Part shown: positions 43,283-53,199 of the stretch, piece by piece
Position numbering within the stretch: the first letter of the stretch is position 1
Layout of the letters: each line of letters begins with the position of its first letter
Program-made: the position numbers and the translations under genes
Sequence record: OP197928
DNA length: 64,000 bases
Reading direction: 5' to 3' (one strand)
Source of the DNA: Shigella phage A2
Notes under the pieces: generated by a model
The model's input: only the letters and a program-made list of their open reading frames with translations
What the model was told of the DNA's origin: nothing
Databases searched by the model: none

Positions 43283-43768
43283 TCAAGTATTGTAAAACAT
43301 TTGATTCAATCGCTTATATTGCCGAATCTTTTGGTCAGAAAAAGAAATTTGGGTTTCAAGCCATTCAATATATTCTGCCGCAGCTTGCATCAAATTTCCT
43401 TCATAGCCATCGTTATTTTCTTGTGCAGCTAATTTAGCTAATGCGTATGAAATACGTTCACCTTGAAAATCAGCTTTAGGCTTCTGAACAACTTGATTAG
43501 TTCTCTCTACAACTTCTTCAATTTCGCCATTTTCTACTGATTCAGTATTCCACAAGCACCAATACGTAATTGGCTTATCGTAGATGTTAATAATCTTTCC
43601 ATCAGAAAGTTCAATTTCAATAATTCCAGTATCAGGCTCTATATCATCTTCACATTCTTTTGCAAGTTCACGAACTTTAAAGACAGTACCTGCACTAAGT
43701 TCCGGCCAGTAATTACACAGCCCTGTATCAGCACGATTAATTCTAAACCACTTATCTACTGTAATCAT
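43283..43768 (-). CDS. hypothetical protein at pin position (possible Lon protease inhibitor Pin), 161 aa
   Basis: ATG 43766-43768; 161 aa matches recalled Pin length; position between 49 and nrdC. Confidence 0.45.
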   Translation of the reverse strand: MITVDKWFRINRADTGLCNYWPELSAGTVFKVRELAKECEDDIEPDTGIIEIELSDGKIINIYDKPITYWCLWNTESVENGEIEEVVERTNQVVQKPKADFQGERISYALAKLAAQENNDGYEGNLMQAAAEYIEWLETQISFSDQKIRQYKRLNQMFYNT

Positions 43769-43891: not shown

Positions 43892-44212
43892 TTATAGCGT
43901 AATCCATTCTCGTACTGTCTGAGTTACTACACGTTCATGGGGCTCGACTAGTTCAACAGTCGGAACTGCATAATACCAGTCAGAATGATAAGAACCTGAC
44001 CGAGATTCATTTACAGCCACATGTACATTATGTTTTGGACTAAAGTAAACACACTGACGATATTGACATTTACCATCTTGCACCCAGTCTTCTATTTCGA
44101 CAGGTTTAAGATAATCGGAAAAATCGAAATCATAGTTTTCCGAAAATGCATCATGGTCTTCAATGATTTCGCTCAGAACTGCATCAACATCTAATTTATT
44201 TTCAATAGTCAT
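43892..44212 (-). CDS. hypothetical protein, 106 aa
   Basis: minus-strand ORF. Confidence 0.45.
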   Translation of the reverse strand: MTIENKLDVDAVLSEIIEDHDAFSENYDFDFSDYLKPVEIEDWVQDGKCQYRQCVYFSPKHNVHVAVNESRSGSYHSDWYYAVPTVELVEPHERVVTQTVREWITL

Positions 44213-44872: not shown

Positions 44873-45115
44873 TTATTCCTTAATTCCTAGTACTTGTTTA
44901 AAAGTCTCGTCGTAATCAAGACTTTGGCCCGTTTGTTCTTTATGTTTGTATATAATATCACTTACTTCTGATAGCATATTTTTATATGAACGAGTTAAAG
45001 CAGATTTAAGCACGCTATATCTATCAGGAAATTTACCATGTTCATTATAATAAGCTATTGCTAATTCACGGACTGCCTTTTCAGCAGTCTCCATATATTC
45101 TTTACGCTTTGTCAT
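44873..45115 (-). CDS. hypothetical protein, 80 aa
   Basis: minus-strand ORF. Confidence 0.45.
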
Positions 45116-45419
45116 TTTCTTCTCGGTTAAATCGGTGTTTGCAATGACGGCATTTATAACGAAGATTACTAGTCTGCCAATGAACTAATTGTACCTGTTC
45201 GGTACCACATTTTGGGCAGTTCGGAACACTCTTAGAAGCCCTTTCGCGACGTTCAACCATAGCCATAATAGCATCCCAGGCTGGAGGTTTAAAATCTAAA
45301 TCGTCACAACCATGAATCTTTCCACGCATTTCTAAATCGTCTTCTTCACCATCCATAATAATTTTAATTAGACTGGAATTACTTGAAGCTGCAATATCTT
45401 CTAATAAGCGCTTTTTCAT
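45102..45419 (-). CDS. hypothetical protein with C-terminal C4 zinc ribbon, 105 aa
   Basis: CPKCG...CRHCKH. Confidence 0.45.
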
Positions 45420-46345
45420 TTCAATACCTCAATAGCATTACGTAAACCATTTGCTTTTGCATTAAGAGCTTTTAACAATTTGGTGTGTTCGGCAATCTGG
45501 GATTCAACTTCAATTAAGCGAGCATTGAGATATTCACGTTCTTCGCTCAGGTTATCAACCTTTTCTACTTTAGGCTCTTTTACAACTGTCTTATATGTAT
45601 TAGGGTTCTTCAGTTTAATTAGAATGCGTGAACTGTATAACATTGAACCATTATCTTCGATTTCGTCATACATTTCTACTACGTCCATGATTTTTAACAT
45701 CATGCGGAGTTTATAAGACAATGAACGAATAGTTTTGTTGTGCTTATTAATTTCTCTAGAGTTCATGGTGCCGAGATTACGTGAGTAATAATAAGGAACC
45801 TGAATATTAATTAACACTGATGAACCACCTGGCTTGTGTGTTACTTCATCAGCAATAACCCAATCCTTAACATGAACTGTATTTGTACGGTCATCGCCTG
45901 CGGTAAATAGTTTGCGAGCATGCTTAAAAAGCATATTCACTTGGTCATTGAATTGACAAGCAAATTTATCAGCAAATTTAGTTTCAGGAATGGTAGATAA
46001 CCAATCAGCCAAATGGGTCTTTTTAACATCGTTAACAATAGTAAATTCAACCAAATCGGTTATAGATGTCTCAGATTTAATGAAGCTCGGCTTCATAAAG
46101 TTTTTAATGTTATCACGAGCTACAGTAGAAGATAACATACGAGAACGTTTAAACCATTCAAGCAAATTGCCTAACGAATGAGAATAAGCGTTTTGAGTAT
46201 CTTTACAGATATGATTTTCCTGACCAACATATTGAAGGAAATCACGAAGAATATTATTGATTACTGCTCTGTGTCCGATCTGATAATTACGGTGTTTAGT
46301 AATAAGACTGTCAAAATAATCAATATAATGTTTACGAGTTTTCAT
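45416..46345 (-). CDS. hypothetical protein with C-terminal coiled-coil tail, 309 aa
   Basis: globular N-domain plus about 45-aa heptad-like C-terminus. Confidence 0.55.
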   Translation of the reverse strand: MKTRKHYIDYFDSLITKHRNYQIGHRAVINNILRDFLQYVGQENHICKDTQNAYSHSLGNLLEWFKRSRMLSSTVARDNIKNFMKPSFIKSETSITDLVEFTIVNDVKKTHLADWLSTIPETKFADKFACQFNDQVNMLFKHARKLFTAGDDRTNTVHVKDWVIADEVTHKPGGSSVLINIQVPYYYSRNLGTMNSREINKHNKTIRSLSYKLRMMLKIMDVVEMYDEIEDNGSMLYSSRILIKLKNPNTYKTVVKEPKVEKVDNLSEEREYLNARLIEVESQIAEHTKLLKALNAKANGLRNAIEVLK

Positions 46346-46398
46346 GTTCTTCTCACTTGGTTAATGAATTTATACTCCGAGCCATCCTTGGCTTTAAA

Positions 46399-47400
46399 TT
46401 ACTTAATTAACTGTAAAGCTTGTTCCAAACGATCAAGGCGATTAACAGATTCTTCCCAAATCCTTTTAGCCTTCTCATATTCTTTCTGCGCTTTATTAGA
46501 AATTTCTAGAACTTCTTTATAAGCTTTTTCTAGTGCAATAACTTCTGGACGAACTTCTATCGGTTCAGGCGAATCGTCAAGACATTCCATTAGTTCTTCA
46601 AGGGTAGTTTCTTCTTTAGGAGTATTCACAATTTCATCACATTTTTGTTGGTAAATTTCTTTATCAGTCGGTGAGTACGTACGTTTCACTTCACGAAGGC
46701 TAATTATAATTTTATATCCTTCCCAACCACACATATTTTTGAAAGGATATGTATGAATACTTTTTACGGTTTCCATACAGCCCAAAGCCGCCTCTAATTG
46801 ATAAGTTATAGTGCTAGCAATTGAGAAAAATTTATTAATATTCTTTTGGTTAGCGTTTGGTGTAAAAAATCCATAATTCACAAAAATAGCTACTTTATTT
46901 TTATCAAGCTCATATTCTTTTACGATAATCATATCAGAAGCCAAAGGATGAATTTGACGATAATCGCCATAACATAATTTAGAAGCTGATTTTAGAATTT
47001 GTCCTTTGAAAAGTCTGAAATTACTAATCCAACGACGAGTAAAAATATTCTCAGGGTCTTCTTTATTATTAAGATGATAAGAATTAACATCACCGAACCA
47101 ATTATATCCTACTACATCTTTAGTTCGTTTAATTTCTTTCCCAAATTTACTAAGAATATCTCTGTTGACTAAGTATGAAAGAAGACGAGACCCTTTAAAG
47201 GTTTTCTTAATGTCATCTTTATCTGTACGACTAGAAATTTCACGAACTTCGTGAATAAATCTGCTGGAAGAAACAATGCTTACATCAATATTATTGAGCC
47301 ATTGATTGATAATAGAAAGAACACTATTCTGACTAGACATAGGTTTAACTTTATCATCAATAACGCTATTGAATGATTTGATATATTCGTTACGAGTCAT
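46399..47400 (-). CDS. hypothetical protein with C-terminal coiled-coil tail, 333 aa
   Basis: start ATG 47398-47400 with GAGGAG SD downstream of early promoter; coiled-coil C-terminus. Confidence 0.55.
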   Translation of the reverse strand: MTRNEYIKSFNSVIDDKVKPMSSQNSVLSIINQWLNNIDVSIVSSSRFIHEVREISSRTDKDDIKKTFKGSRLLSYLVNRDILSKFGKEIKRTKDVVGYNWFGDVNSYHLNNKEDPENIFTRRWISNFRLFKGQILKSASKLCYGDYRQIHPLASDMIIVKEYELDKNKVAIFVNYGFFTPNANQKNINKFFSIASTITYQLEAALGCMETVKSIHTYPFKNMCGWEGYKIIISLREVKRTYSPTDKEIYQQKCDEIVNTPKEETTLEELMECLDDSPEPIEVRPEVIALEKAYKEVLEISNKAQKEYEKAKRIWEESVNRLDRLEQALQLIK

Positions 47401-47428
47401 ATTAATCTCCTCAGTAGAAAGTAAGAAC

Positions 47429-47458
47429 ATTATACCACATCCTTGTGGCAAAGTAAAC
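47429..47458 (-). promoter_or_regulatory. early promoter
   Basis: reverse complement GTTTACtttgccacaaggatgtggTATAAT (near-duplicate of promoter at 2418-2447). Confidence 0.6.
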
Positions 47459-48483
47459 TAGTTTAGTGCATTTAGTGCATTGTTCAGTTTAGAACGTTGC
47501 TTCGTAAGATTTTTGACTTTTTCTTGAGCTTTTTCTAGCATCTTTTCAGCTTCTAGCACTTCATTAGTTGCTTTAACGAGTTCATCATCTACTGCCTTGA
47601 TAGACTTCTCAATCGCATCGGCATGCCATTTTTCAACAGGTTTAAGACTCGGATTTTCAACAGGAAGAAAATTCACTTTATTGAATTTCCATGCATCCTT
47701 ATTACCTGAACTATACATCCAAAATTTAGGATCGTTTGATGAGTAATTAGATAAATTTAAATTTAAGTTATCTTGCACTTCTTGCTTTTTCTCTTGTGTA
47801 ACTTCGTCCTTTCTCAAAAAATCATATTTAAATGAAACGATCATATCAAGTTCATATGTTGTCGTATCTAATTTAAATCGTTCGAAATGCTGCGAAATCT
47901 TAGATTGAACAGCAGCAACAACATCCATATACTTAAATGCTTCTGTCAACTGCGATTTAAGGCATTCGCAAATTGAAAGAGAATTTTTAGTACTAGGTTT
48001 AAAGCTAATTCGTGCAGTTCTATTATTTTCTTTTAATGGTCTTACTTCCATCTGAAGAGTATAACCATCAAATTTCAGGTTCTTTAAGTTAATGTCAGAA
48101 CCTTTTAATCGACTAGCCGTCGACAAAATTTGCTTTAATTGTTTACGGAATAGAGCAATAAATCTCCATTCAATACGATAATGATTTGGATTAAAAAATC
48201 CAGATGATAAATCGACCTTACTCTGACCAACGCCTTGAACAAATAGAGGATTTTTATAATCAATAGTTTTACAGAAATCGGTGAGCTGCTCACGAGCCGT
48301 CATTTGTGTAATATACCCCGCTTTACTAAAATGACGTAACCATTCATTGCTATTCATATATTTAAAGTGAATATCACGATTAACTTTATCAGGGTCTAAA
48401 TTATTTTGGCACAAAAATGTCATAACATTACGGGTATAGCTGGCATTACGAACCATATCTTCAATTTGAGAACGAGTTTTCAT
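47458..48483 (-). CDS. hypothetical protein with C-terminal coiled-coil tail, 341 aa
   Basis: coiled-coil C-terminus DDELVKATNEVLEAEKMLEKAQEKVKNL. Confidence 0.55.
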   Translation of the reverse strand: MKTRSQIEDMVRNASYTRNVMTFLCQNNLDPDKVNRDIHFKYMNSNEWLRHFSKAGYITQMTAREQLTDFCKTIDYKNPLFVQGVGQSKVDLSSGFFNPNHYRIEWRFIALFRKQLKQILSTASRLKGSDINLKNLKFDGYTLQMEVRPLKENNRTARISFKPSTKNSLSICECLKSQLTEAFKYMDVVAAVQSKISQHFERFKLDTTTYELDMIVSFKYDFLRKDEVTQEKKQEVQDNLNLNLSNYSSNDPKFWMYSSGNKDAWKFNKVNFLPVENPSLKPVEKWHADAIEKSIKAVDDELVKATNEVLEAEKMLEKAQEKVKNLTKQRSKLNNALNALN

Positions 48484-48491
48484 AGTGTTCC

Positions 48492-49400
48492 TTAAGATTT
48501 AAGTAAATCAACAATTTTAATTAATTTTTCACGCTCAGATTTAGCTTTACTACTCAATCCAGATAGTCTGAAAATTTCATCGTCATACTGTTGAATAGAA
48601 ATATTCAGCTCTTCAATTTGCTTATTAAAATAATCAATTTGCTCAGAATGTTTTTCATTACTGCGAACTGGTACAGGTTTTGTAGGTAATTTAGATGAAC
48701 TGGATTCATCCGGGCGATAAATTAAAATACAACTTGAACCAATCGGGCATTTAGCACCAGACACATATTCTAATGTTCCGGCTTCTTTTAAAACTTCAAA
48801 AGCTAAACAGAGATGATGCCCCATATTAACATAATCTGTAGAGCGAGCTCTGACGTAATAATCATCGCCGCGAATACTAAATTTAAAGCATTTAAGGTCT
48901 TCTGTATTATTGGTCTTAAAAATCATTTGTTTATCTAGACCTTTAGCTAATCGAGCGCCTAATGCTAATAATCGTCGTTGATTTTCCCACAAATCTGCGA
49001 TCATTTGGTCAAATGATAATTTCGGCATTAGTCGACCGTAAAGATCATAGCCTTTATTATAATTGCGAAGAATTTCACTTGCATTAATACGAGACAATGC
49101 TCCAATTTTATTAAGGGCTTTCATAATGCGATTAGATAAACCCATTCCAGACCCGTTTGTTCGCTGTAAATGTTTTTCTAATCCAAATCCAATATCAACT
49201 TTAAACTTATCTAAAATTTCTGCATGAACATCTCTGTCAATAACATCCAAATCCAAAGTTGGGTTAAATCTATGAAAAAATTTATCTGGCTCTCCACGAC
49301 GAAGTACAGTCCATTCATTCAATTTTTTATTAACTAAAGATTTAATTACTGCATTGACATTATTAATTACTACTGACATATTTTCCTCACTCAATTTCAA
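48492..49400 (-). CDS. hypothetical protein with C-terminal coiled-coil tail, 302 aa
   Basis: coiled-coil C-terminus. Confidence 0.55.
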   Translation of the reverse strand: MKLSEENMSVVINNVNAVIKSLVNKKLNEWTVLRRGEPDKFFHRFNPTLDLDVIDRDVHAEILDKFKVDIGFGLEKHLQRTNGSGMGLSNRIMKALNKIGALSRINASEILRNYNKGYDLYGRLMPKLSFDQMIADLWENQRRLLALGARLAKGLDKQMIFKTNNTEDLKCFKFSIRGDDYYVRARSTDYVNMGHHLCLAFEVLKEAGTLEYVSGAKCPIGSSCILIYRPDESSSSKLPTKPVPVRSNEKHSEQIDYFNKQIEELNISIQQYDDEIFRLSGLSSKAKSEREKLIKIVDLLKS

Positions 49401-49849: not shown

Positions 49850-50377
49850 TTATGCGAGTACCGTCTTTAACCGTTCTTCAAATTTCCGAAGAGTGTTCTG
49901 GCGTTCAGCTCTTTGCTTTTTGTAAGTTTCAATACGCTCTGAAATGAGAGTGTATCGTTCATTTACTGATTCTTTCATAAAATCAGGAATTTCACGAGAA
50001 GCTTTAATCTCGTCAAATTTATCAATAACAGCTTGCTCTTCAGCAATTAAGTTATCATACATCAAAATATCTTTCTTGATGAACTCAATATCTTCTTGAG
50101 TTACACGAGATAATTTAGATGCTTTATCCTTTTTGTACTGTTCGTTAGTATCACGAGACCAGTGTAATGTACGATTTTTATTCGTATTCTTGTAAATTTC
50201 TACAATACCAATCTCATCGATAATAACGATCCAATTCCAACGGGATTTGTAAATTTGTCCTCCATCAACCGTGATTTCACCACCGATTGAGACATCATTA
50301 AAGAACTTGCTTTGAGCTTCAGATTTAAATTTACCATCATTGTAGTTTACCAAGTTGAAAATATCTTTAGCATTCAT
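49850..50377 (-). CDS. hypothetical protein, 175 aa
   Basis: ATG 50375-50377 with GGAGGA SD downstream of early promoter 50406-50435. Confidence 0.55.
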   Translation of the reverse strand: MNAKDIFNLVNYNDGKFKSEAQSKFFNDVSIGGEITVDGGQIYKSRWNWIVIIDEIGIVEIYKNTNKNRTLHWSRDTNEQYKKDKASKLSRVTQEDIEFIKKDILMYDNLIAEEQAVIDKFDEIKASREIPDFMKESVNERYTLISERIETYKKQRAERQNTLRKFEERLKTVLA

Positions 50378-50405: not shown

Positions 50406-50435
50406 ATAATACCACAGAGGAACAGTCTTGTAAAC
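50406..50435 (-). promoter_or_regulatory. early promoter
   Basis: reverse complement GTTTACaagactgttcctctgtggTATTAT. Confidence 0.55.
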
Positions 50436-51867: not shown

Positions 51868-52068
51868 TTATTTTGACATTTCTTCGATGTCACGACGATA
51901 CCCGTCACGAACTTCACGAAGAGCTTCAAGGCCACACATAGGCTCGATACCAGTAATGTGAACTTGATTAATCTGATACTCTACATCTTCTAACTGAGCG
52001 AAAACATAACGACGTTCAGCTGCACAACCAGATTTAGCTTTACCGAAACGTTTATTCAAAGTAGTCAT
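51868..52068 (-). CDS. hypothetical protein, 66 aa
   Basis: minus-strand ORF after early promoter 52107-52136. Confidence 0.45.
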   Translation of the reverse strand: MTTLNKRFGKAKSGCAAERRYVFAQLEDVEYQINQVHITGIEPMCGLEALREVRDGYRRDIEEMSK

Positions 52069-52106
52069 TTTGTATCTCCAATTTACTCATTTGTTTTGAT
52101 AGTTGT

Positions 52107-52136
52107 ATAGTACCATAAAGCTTTATGCCTGTAAAC
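52107..52136 (-). promoter_or_regulatory. early promoter immediately downstream of terminator
   Basis: reverse complement GTTTACaggcataaagctttatggTACTAT. Confidence 0.55.
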
Positions 52137-52154
52137 CGTTTTGTGAAAAATTTT

Positions 52155-52184
52155 TAAAATAAAAAGGGAGCCCGAAGGCTCCCT
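52155..52184 (-). terminator. intrinsic terminator downstream of nucleotidyltransferase gene
   Basis: GGGAGCC-UUCG-GGCUCCC followed by UUUUUAUUUU. Confidence 0.75.
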
Positions 52185-52185
52185 A

Positions 52186-53199
52186 TCATTTATAATAACT
52201 TCGGTGGTTTTCAAGATAAACCCTCTCAAGGAAGTCATCCCAGAAACCCATGTCTACTTTTTGCTGCATACCGTTCTTAGAAGCTTCAATAGATGCTGCT
52301 TCTACTTGATCGACCACATCTTCCAAAAACTCTTGAACAGTTTTAAATGGGTGTTTACCCAGCTTCACGTCGAGAATAAATGGAGCGTCTTGAAGTGGAT
52401 AGACTAAGTCACCAGTTTTGTAAATTTCCAATAGTTGGAGTCCACCACGACAAGCATGACTCAGTGCTTTCCAGTCAATGCCCTCATTCGCTTCAGCCTT
52501 ACGAGCACGTTCACCGTATTCGGCATCAAGTTTATTCAAAGACTGCTTAAGCTCAATAAGAGAAAGTGTTGTCTGATATTTACGACCCAACACAGTGTAG
52601 AACGTTTGTGGACCGGTTTTCTCATGATTATGGAATACCCATTCACAAAACTCGTTTTCAGGGAGTCGGTGTTTGATATCTTCTACCTTAGTTCGGCGTA
52701 AACGATCTGGAATTCCCTCTTGGTAATCAACCCACTGGTCAGGGATTTGATTAACTACTTTCAATACATCACGTAATGCGGCCAAACGAGAACCCTTGAC
52801 ACCGTATTTAGAAGCTTGCTTGCGAACATATCCTAAATAGGATTTCATGTTAGTCGTATAAAAACGAGAACGATTGTCTTGAATAAACTTCCATACATCA
52901 GGCAAATCAGATTTAACTACCAGTTCAGGTGGAGTGTGGAGCATATCCAATGCTACGGTTTCACCATCTGCTGCTAATTTAAAGAAATACTTAAGACTGT
53001 ATAGTTCATGGTCAATATCATCTTTGGTGTTTTTAGATGATGTGTTGTTAGTGTTTTTACTCATATGCTCTTTAACATTTCCAATAAGAATATCGCGAGC
53101 AGGAGGAACAAAGATTTCTTTAAAATCTACATCAGATTCTGGAGTAGAAGTTCCATAAAGATGACTACCAAAATAGCTTTTCATTACTGTTTTCATCAT
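52186..53199 (-). CDS. putative polymerase-beta superfamily nucleotidyltransferase, 337 aa
   Basis: N-terminal GS-x10-DVD motif (GSHLYGTSTPESDVDF); followed by strong terminator. Confidence 0.5.
   Translation of the reverse strand: MMKTVMKSYFGSHLYGTSTPESDVDFKEIFVPPARDILIGNVKEHMSKNTNNTSSKNTKDDIDHELYSLKYFFKLAADGETVALDMLHTPPELVVKSDLPDVWKFIQDNRSRFYTTNMKSYLGYVRKQASKYGVKGSRLAALRDVLKVVNQIPDQWVDYQEGIPDRLRRTKVEDIKHRLPENEFCEWVFHNHEKTGPQTFYTVLGRKYQTTLSLIELKQSLNKLDAEYGERARKAEANEGIDWKALSHACRGGLQLLEIYKTGDLVYPLQDAPFILDVKLGKHPFKTVQEFLEDVVDQVEAASIEASKNGMQQKVDMGFWDDFLERVYLENHRSYYK

Follow-up and report, generated by a model that had tools for sequence, protein, structure and literature searches.

Why does a T4-like phage carry, next to one another, four genes whose products are similar in length and all end in the same kind of tail, and do these genes share an ancestor? 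The question is raised by a 64,000-nucleotide stretch of the Shigella phage A2 genome (sequence record OP197928; this whole stretch is called the window below), in which the four genes occupy the minus strand between positions 45416 and 49379. Phage T4 is the best-studied phage, and about half of its genes are without known function. A first reading of the window, made from the sequence alone (the sequence-only reading), had allowed for two origins of the four genes, an ancient duplicated family or a convergent architecture of unrelated heads with similar tails. It had proposed profile alignment of the N-terminal domains, structure prediction and a comparison of gene content across T-even genomes as checks. 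The analysis presented here finds that the four N-terminal domains (heads) are homologous and that the genes are ancient tandem paralogues. It is rather probable that the encoded proteins form a diversifying family of oligomers that inhibit host anti-phage immunity by binding rather than by catalysis.

The Four Genes and Their Identity

The window belongs to Tequatrovirus and keeps the T4 gene order 49-pin-49.x-nrdC-nrdC.1...nrdC.11. The ORFs (open reading frames) that flank the four genes are recognisable as endonuclease VII, Pin, and the NrdC thioredoxin, and the 4-kb stretch matched 656 phage records (best match 97%), nearly all of them T4-like phages of Escherichia, Shigella, and Yersinia. 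The T4 reference has nrdC.3, nrdC.4, nrdC.5, and nrdC.6 at the equivalent positions, and nrdC.7 to nrdC.11 come after them. The four genes are the orthologues of these T4 genes, whose names are used for them here; the sequence-only reading had correctly placed such genes in the T4 nrdC-mobD interval.

The nrdC.3 orthologue (paralogue 1; 45416-46345, 309 residues) has the same position as T4 nrdC.3 and matches phrog_1435 over its full length (E 2.5e-116). The nrdC.4 orthologue (paralogue 2; 46399-47400, 333 residues) starts at ATG 47400 behind a GAGGA ribosome-binding site, matches phrog_1435 (E 9.8e-165), and has a precomputed Pfam assignment to PF26897. The nrdC.5 orthologue (paralogue 3; 47458-48483, 341 residues) is 92.7% identical to T4 NrdC.5 over the full length, with the same gene order. 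It also matches the Pfam family DUF7235 (PF23882) from end to end (E 3.4e-121; 404.8 bits with a cut-off of 30, profile positions 1-307 of 307), a profile that found no match in nrdC.3, nrdC.4, or nrdC.6 in the Pfam search. The nrdC.6 orthologue (paralogue 4; 48492-49379, 295 residues) matches phrog_2257 (E 2.9e-152) and has a precomputed Pfam assignment to PF26899.

The sequence-only reading had described four ORFs of about 300-340 residues. All four are present on the minus strand, but the fourth starts at 49379 and not at 49400. The TTG at 49400 is a mechanical ORF start only. Because a GAGGA ribosome-binding site lies 5 nt before ATG 49379, and nearly all nrdC.6 orthologues in the databases (295-296 residues) begin at the equivalent codon, the gene is assigned to 48492-49379. 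Comparison of the four genes with T4 and four other relatives gives ratios of nonsynonymous to synonymous substitution (dN/dS) of 0.06-0.31; thus, the four genes are real and under purifying selection.

Homology of the Heads

Are the heads related to each other? In pairwise BLASTP, nrdC.3 and nrdC.4 are 25% identical over 226 residues (E 2e-8), while nothing significant was found for nrdC.4 with nrdC.5 or for nrdC.5 with nrdC.6. The statement that the N-terminal domains cannot be aligned by eye is therefore matched by BLAST for the latter two pairs, but not for nrdC.3 and nrdC.4, and it does not extend to profiles. In the PHROGs collection nrdC.3 and nrdC.4 share one family, phrog_1435, and both nrdC.4 and nrdC.5 weakly match phrog_26858. 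Small-profile hhalign comparisons gave a probability of 98% for nrdC.3 with nrdC.4 and 67-86% for nrdC.3 with nrdC.5; nrdC.6 compared with each other family was not significant. The homology of all four emerged only once bridge sequences from other genera had joined the profiles.

These sequences came from nine additional Straboviridae loci, representing eight classified genera and one unclassified Klebsiella phage. Iterative hidden Markov model (HMM) searches were run against 567 sequences, comprising 554 ORFs from the window and the nine related genomes and 13 database family members; for head-only searches the last 55 residues were removed. Starting from nrdC.3 or nrdC.4, the search first recruited the single-copy gene of the Klebsiella phage (E 5e-4), next the Winklervirus gene and nrdC.5 (E 2e-4), and then nrdC.6 (E 7e-5). 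The search started from nrdC.6 arrives at the same bridge genes, which are the single-copy members at the Klebsiella phage, Winklervirus, Karamvirus, Moonvirus, and Tegunavirus loci. In the tail-less version no unrelated ORF of the 567-sequence database entered, only genes of this locus.

The profile of each family was also compared with the profile of all remaining members. In this leave-one-family-out comparison, hhalign probabilities for nrdC.3, nrdC.4, nrdC.5, and nrdC.6 were 98.7, 98.1, 98.0, and 97.0% at full length and 97.4, 97.2, 95.9, and 95.9% without the tails, with reversed-sequence controls at 6.2% or less. The proposed alignment of the N-terminal domains has thus detected homology. 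A head motif, [IL][LI]xx[AG][AS][RK]Lxx[GS]xD, aligns across the families and falls on equivalent helices in the predicted structures of nrdC.4 and nrdC.6.

Those structures are AlphaFold2 monomer models, with a predicted local distance difference test (pLDDT) score of 84 for nrdC.4 and 78.5 for nrdC.6. In the nrdC.4 model, six helices at the N-terminus are followed by an alpha/beta core, a linker, and the tail helix. The two models share a common core order of two helices, a short helix, two strands, a long helix, and two strands, followed by the linker and the tail. In Foldseek searches of BFVD, the nrdC.4 model matched, at probability 1.0, an nrdC.3-like protein of Yersinia phage fPS-65 and JS10 NrdC.6 (E 1.2e-5). 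At the same probability it matched proteins of 300-370 residues from T4-like phages of Acinetobacter, Pectobacterium, Erwinia, Serratia, Klebsiella, and Yersinia. The nrdC.6 model has largely the same matches, the common ones including JS10 NrdC.6, Acj61, Acj9, PM2, and Cronus; Acj61 and Acj9 are Acinetobacter phages, and the two Acj61 matches are adjacent genes at the same locus. The structure prediction, which covered nrdC.4 and nrdC.6, thus gives both the same core topology and common database matches.

Could the similarity nevertheless be convergent, with unrelated heads that each gained or fused to a coiled-coil tail? The blank BLAST results would fit this explanation, as would the fact that coiled coils are often alike through composition. 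So would a metagenomic contig, possibly an assembly chimera, that carries an nrdC.5 tail on an unrelated head (see below). However, the match of tail-less profiles at 96-97%, far above the reversed controls, is not expected of unrelated heads. The head-only searches that brought in no unrelated ORF, the topology and database matches common to the two models, and the occupation of the same locus in all genera also speak against it. Convergence is highly improbable. Since profile-profile, iterative HMM, and structure comparisons unite all four proteins, the genes are the product of ancient duplication, and of the two origins first considered it is the duplicated family that holds.

The C-Terminal Heptad Tails

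The sequence-only reading had noticed a heptad-like tail on each of the four proteins. With a simple heptad score applied to the C-terminal 60 residues of the 74 ORFs of at least 100 residues in the window, the five best scores belong to nrdC.5, nrdC.3, nrdC.6, nrdC.8, and nrdC.4, in that order. In a shuffle test on the 42-residue tail of each protein, the observed hydrophobic contrast at heptad positions a and d was reached by 323 of 20,000 shuffles for nrdC.3, 76 for nrdC.4, none for nrdC.5, and 36 for nrdC.6. Together with the helices in the nrdC.4 and nrdC.6 models, these tests confirm the tails as a genuine, non-random heptad feature.

Each tail comprises six heptads with at most one glycine or proline per 42 residues. 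Hydrophobic residues occupy 83-92% of a/d positions in the four tails of the window and 67-100% across family members. The nrdC.3 tail (45419-45553, minus strand, residues ~265-309) reaches 83% over its six heptads and has the second-best score, while the nrdC.5 tail (47461-47625, minus strand, residues ~287-341, ending ...KLNNALNALN) reaches 92% and has the best score in the window. In nrdC.4 the tail (46402-46548, minus strand, residues 285-333, ending ...RLEQALQLIK) is modelled as a solitary helix of 48 residues (285-332) that follows a linker stretch with pLDDT below 50. In nrdC.6 the tail (48495-48656, minus strand, residues 242-295, ending ...KLIKIVDLLKS) is modelled, beyond the disordered residues 227-241, as two helices (242-271 and 277-294) separated by a glycine kink across which the heptad register continues.

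Are the tails homologous as well? The four families share one register, anchored on a terminal L-K, with hydrophobic residues at -1, -4, -8, -15, and -18. The tails of nrdC.3, nrdC.4, nrdC.5, and nrdC.6 end in ...LRNAIEVLK, ...LEQALQLIK, ...LNNALNALN/K, and ...LIKIVDLLKS, and the common motif is Lxx[A/I][I/L/V]xxLK. Tail-only hhalign comparisons among the four families were mostly non-significant, the exception being nrdC.3 with nrdC.5 (60%); the homology of the tails therefore rests on register, anchor, and context.

The nrdC.8 orthologue (49850-50377, minus strand, 175 residues) also has a heptad tail, the fourth-best in the window, whose contrast is reached by 81 of 20,000 shuffles. It was considered as a fifth family member and rejected, as hhalign with the four families gave at most 1.3% for the full length and the head, and 8.6% for the tail only. 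In a 2026 paper T4 nrdC.8 is down-regulated in DRT1-expressing cells and is treated as a nucleotide reductase, a label that this analysis does not support.

Distribution and Rearrangements

How widespread is the family? Searches with family members found database relatives confined to T4-like phage sequence (63 for nrdC.4 and 105 for nrdC.6), and a search of IMG/VR with nrdC.5 gave five close relatives only. Tequatrovirus has four copies per locus. Mosigvirus, Gaprivervirus, and Dhakavirus each have three, and the absent member is not always the same: nrdC.3 is missing from Gaprivervirus and Dhakavirus, and nrdC.4 from Mosigvirus. Two copies are found in Tegunavirus and in Acinetobacter phage Acj61, and a single one in Karamvirus, Winklervirus, Moonvirus, and the Klebsiella phage. 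The copies lie between nrdC.10 and nrdC in Tequatrovirus, Mosigvirus, Gaprivervirus, Dhakavirus, Karamvirus, Winklervirus, Moonvirus, Lasallevirus, and the unclassified Klebsiella phage. In Tegunavirus, gp94 is on the nrdC.10-nrdC side in a record that is unannotated, and a second candidate is upstream of nrdC.10. The family is thus restricted to Straboviridae, with one to four copies at a fixed locus; the comparison of T-even gene content that had been proposed shows the same locus with differing members.

Do the four proteins form a single machine, as subunits of one hetero-oligomeric complex held together by compatible tails? The tails are alike in length, register, and terminal motif, and the genes are adjacent and probably co-expressed, with only 8 nt between nrdC.6 and nrdC.5. 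By contrast, in many genera the only copy also has a tail of this kind, so the tail needs no paralogous partners. The sets of copies differ between genera, one phage has fused nrdC.5 to nrdC.3 and lost nrdC.4, and nrdC.6 of the T4 reference has no tail (both described below). In addition, nrdC.5 alone complements the Dsr1 phenotype of T4 (see the next section), although other paralogues may remain in that mutant. A hetero-oligomeric complex is therefore improbable.

The alleles of nrdC.3 are discrete, with identities of 60%, 75%, or more than 95%; nrdC.3 of the window is 61% identical to T4 NrdC.3 and 77% to the Mosigvirus allele. The segment of nrdC.2 and nrdC.3 (45102-46345, minus strand) exists as deeply divergent Tequatrovirus alleles, with about 60% protein identity and a synonymous divergence (dS) above 1, while the flanking genes are more than 90% identical. 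This suggests that nrdC.2-nrdC.3 is an allelic cassette exchanged by recombination. The dN/dS of nrdC.3, nrdC.4, and nrdC.5 is mostly 0.12-0.31, compared with mostly 0-0.13 for nrdC.8 to nrdC.10, nrdC, nrdC.1, and endonuclease VII. Copy-number variation, discrete alleles, the higher dN/dS of nrdC.3 to nrdC.5, and rearrangements together suggest the signature of an arms race.

Several rearrangements have been found. A protein of 299 residues (P0119), carried on a genome-length phage contig of 167 kb, is a deletion chimera in which residues 145-273 of NrdC.5 are joined to residues ~134-309 of NrdC.3 with removal of nrdC.4; the junction lies at a KVN(F/M)L microhomology. NrdC.6 of Shigella phage Sf25 (P0121, 378 residues) has an internal tandem duplication of about 83 residues (~176-258). 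Its junction is at ...QIEEL, the same point where the T4 reference leaves the frame. In that reference (NC_000866) nrdC.6 (52066-52893) encodes 275 residues, diverges after ...QIEEL into IFLFNNMMMKFSDYLD, and is without the coiled-coil tail, apparently lost through a frameshift. In the HIDEN-SEQ preprint supplement the annotated T4 stock has an nrdC.6 of 891 nt and 296 residues; therefore, the reference may hold a sequencing error or a strain-specific mutation.

Another unusual form is found on a metagenomic contig of 803 bp (ENA ERZ27280904, k141_89665). An ORF of 173 residues at 120-641 (P0230) joins a foreign head of 115 residues to a tail identical to that of nrdC.5, and is followed by the start of nrdC.4. 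The head has no match in the phage collection. P0230 may reflect either a genuine exchange of heads or a chimera created in short-read assembly.

A conserved gene of about 260 codons, whose product ends in ...THAFYKRPS and has no coiled-coil tail, is present in the same interval of four loci: those of the Klebsiella phage (L013, 12256-13074), Karamvirus (L014, 12683-13456), Winklervirus (L016, 12190-12993), and Tegunavirus (L012, 12630-13421). In the first three it is directly upstream of the family member.

Function of the Family

What do these proteins do? A T4 deletion mutant no longer plates on ECOR17 owing to the sirtuin defence Dsr1, and T4 nrdC.5, described as an early gene, restores plating on Dsr1 cells when it is expressed alone from a plasmid (Srikant, Guegler & Laub 2022, eLife, PMC9391042). 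The tetratricopeptide repeat (TPR) sensor of Dsr1 has been reported to recognise the phage major capsid protein (PMC12803255). The expectation that the four proteins would be conserved but functionally undescribed thus has to be corrected for nrdC.5, whose T4 orthologue overcomes this defence. The literature searched contains no description of the four as one family, nor of their tails, and both the family relationship and the conserved tail appear to be unreported.

Are the proteins enzymes? No enzymatic domain was found in any of the four by Pfam, NCBIfam, or PADLOC (signals from PADLOC and NCBIfam were sub-threshold), and in the superfamily alignment only hydrophobic positions are conserved, with no candidate catalytic residue. 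These results argue for a binder rather than an enzyme. No solved structure was found that matches the family fold, and sequence searches of the PDB gave designed helical repeats only.

Many GenBank records give the name "thioredoxin" to nrdC.3 to nrdC.6, as well as to nrdC.10 and nrdC.11. No match to a thioredoxin family was found for any of the four in Pfam or NCBIfam, and the nrdC.4 and nrdC.6 models are not thioredoxin-like. As no thioredoxin domain is present, the label is a mis-annotation for these four genes, which seems to have been propagated from the locus name nrdC.x.

There is a weak similarity between residues 30-86 of nrdC.3 and the SAM-like DNA-binding domain at the N-terminus of tyrosine recombinases, with scores far below the cut-offs (Pfam PF02899, E 0.064; NCBIfam XerD-type, E 0.0017-0.012).

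The proposal that accounts for these observations is that the family consists of immune inhibitors built from a variable head and a conserved tail. Each protein would begin with a helical subdomain and continue with an alpha/beta core, in which two helices precede a strand-strand-helix-strand-strand unit; a disordered linker would lead to a C-terminal amphipathic helix of about 45 residues. The fast-evolving head would determine target specificity. The conserved tail would form a homo-oligomer, a dimer or a trimer, and so may provide avidity for oligomeric immune sensors. The nrdC.5 copy would have the role of its T4 orthologue, which neutralises the SIR2-NADase defence Dsr1. The other three would be specificity variants against other defence proteins, which we guess to be relatives of the Dsr1/Avs7 group of TPR sensors; because their identity to NrdC.5 is below 25%, they probably have other targets. 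We infer that the proteins most likely bind their targets directly and oligomerise through the tail, and that nrdC.3, nrdC.4, and nrdC.6 most likely act in counter-defence too.

Several points weigh against this proposal. With a dN/dS of 0.06-0.13, nrdC.6 is about as conserved as its ordinary neighbours, and dN/dS is well below 1 throughout, which falls short of proving positive selection directly. In rows of the HIDEN-SEQ table, nrdC.3, nrdC.4, and nrdC.6 have no fitness effect. The models are of monomers and the oligomeric state is a prediction, and the effect of NrdC.5 on Dsr1 could be indirect, through NAD+ metabolism or masking of the trigger. The place of nrdC.5 in the family is also less directly supported: pairwise hhalign of nrdC.4 with nrdC.5 is weak (12-52%), and an exhaustive HMMER search with the nrdC.5 profile, which covered 1.84 billion representatives, found 13 proteins and did not reach the other families at a library-wide E of 0.001 or less. 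Its membership draws on sequence profiles, architecture, tail register, and position.

Might the primary role of the family lie outside immunity, for example in host takeover, nucleic-acid or nucleotide metabolism, or regulation, with the effect on Dsr1 as a side effect or a late specialisation? The genes are located among the nucleotide-metabolism genes nrdC, nrdD, nrdG, and tk. The fair conservation of nrdC.6 and the sub-threshold resemblance of nrdC.3 to a DNA-binding domain would also be in line with such a role. However, none of the four genes is needed on laboratory hosts: T4 tolerates the deletion of nrdC.1-6 (PMC9825161), and nrdC.3, nrdC.4, nrdC.5, and nrdC.6 are each listed as non-essential by transposon sequencing in entries of the HIDEN-SEQ preprint supplement. 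Copy number and alleles are strongly variable, no catalytic residues are conserved, counter-defence is the sole phenotype so far described in the family, and the genes directly alongside also act in counter-defence. A primarily non-immune role is unlikely, though it deserves some weight.

A different use of the tail can also be imagined. It might be a common docking module through which every member, whatever its head binds, joins one partner and delivers immune sensors to it. The partner could be a host protease, a chaperone, or a mixed bundle of paralogues, and the array would be a modular adaptor system. Recombination might then place new heads on the tail, and the nrdC.5-type tail on the foreign head of P0230 hints at such exchange. 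We regard this idea as quite doubtful, and inhibition by homo-oligomeric binders is still the preferred reading.

The Counter-Defence Neighbourhood

Two genes downstream of the four are orthologues of known inhibitors. The gp49.2 orthologue is at 43892-44212 (minus strand); gp49.2 inhibits OLD, as reported in T6 (PMC13096335). The NrdC.1 orthologue, at 44873-45115 (minus strand), is 100% identical to T4 NrdC.1, which has been reported to inhibit Septu (bioRxiv 2025.11.20.689424). The gene for Pin, the Lon inhibitor, is at 43283-43768.

A promoter-like site of the sigma-70/T4-early type (TTTACT-17-TATAAT with an upstream TG; 47429-47457, minus strand) is located in the nrdC.5-nrdC.4 spacer, upstream of nrdC.4, and overlaps a small hairpin at 47433-47450. 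A second promoter-like site (TTTACA-17-TATTAT with an upstream TG; 50406-50434, minus strand) is upstream of nrdC.8. Both are good sites by sequence, but the first is a consensus match only, and the total number of such matches in the region is near the shuffle expectation.

Comparison with Known Systems

As paralogues of NrdC.5, nrdC.3, nrdC.4, and nrdC.6 become specific, testable candidates for new counter-defence proteins, in a family that spans Straboviridae infecting Escherichia, Klebsiella, Enterobacter, Erwinia, Yersinia, and Acinetobacter. The domain map of variable head, linker, and conserved coiled coil may guide work on Dsr1 inhibition, and a widespread "thioredoxin" mis-annotation in the databases is corrected.

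How does the family compare with systems already described? The closest is T4 NrdC.5 (PMC9391042), of which the gene at 47458-48483 is the orthologue and the other three genes are distant paralogues; its activity is known for the T4 protein only, against Dsr1 of ECOR17. A possible model for NrdC.5 is DSAD1 of SPbeta-like phages, which is reported to inhibit the DSR2 sirtuin (SIR2-NADase) defence by binding. The analogy would be one of mechanism, as similarity to DSAD1 in sequence or fold was not found for the four proteins.

The T4 internal proteins IPI, IPII, and IPIII are likewise related accessory proteins of T-even phages that combine a common short module, the capsid-targeting sequence, with different bodies. 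IPI blocks GmrSD, and IPIII is needed on ECOR17 (PMC9391042). Their module differs in being N-terminal and serving for packaging into the head, whereas that of nrdC.3 to nrdC.6 is a C-terminal coiled coil on proteins made in the cell, and there is no sequence relationship between the two groups. Finally, gp49.2 and NrdC.1 differ from the four proteins in their small size (80-106 residues), unrelated sequence, and lack of a coiled-coil tail, but they are found in the same island, no more than 2 kb away, are likewise early and non-essential, and also have orthologues in the window.

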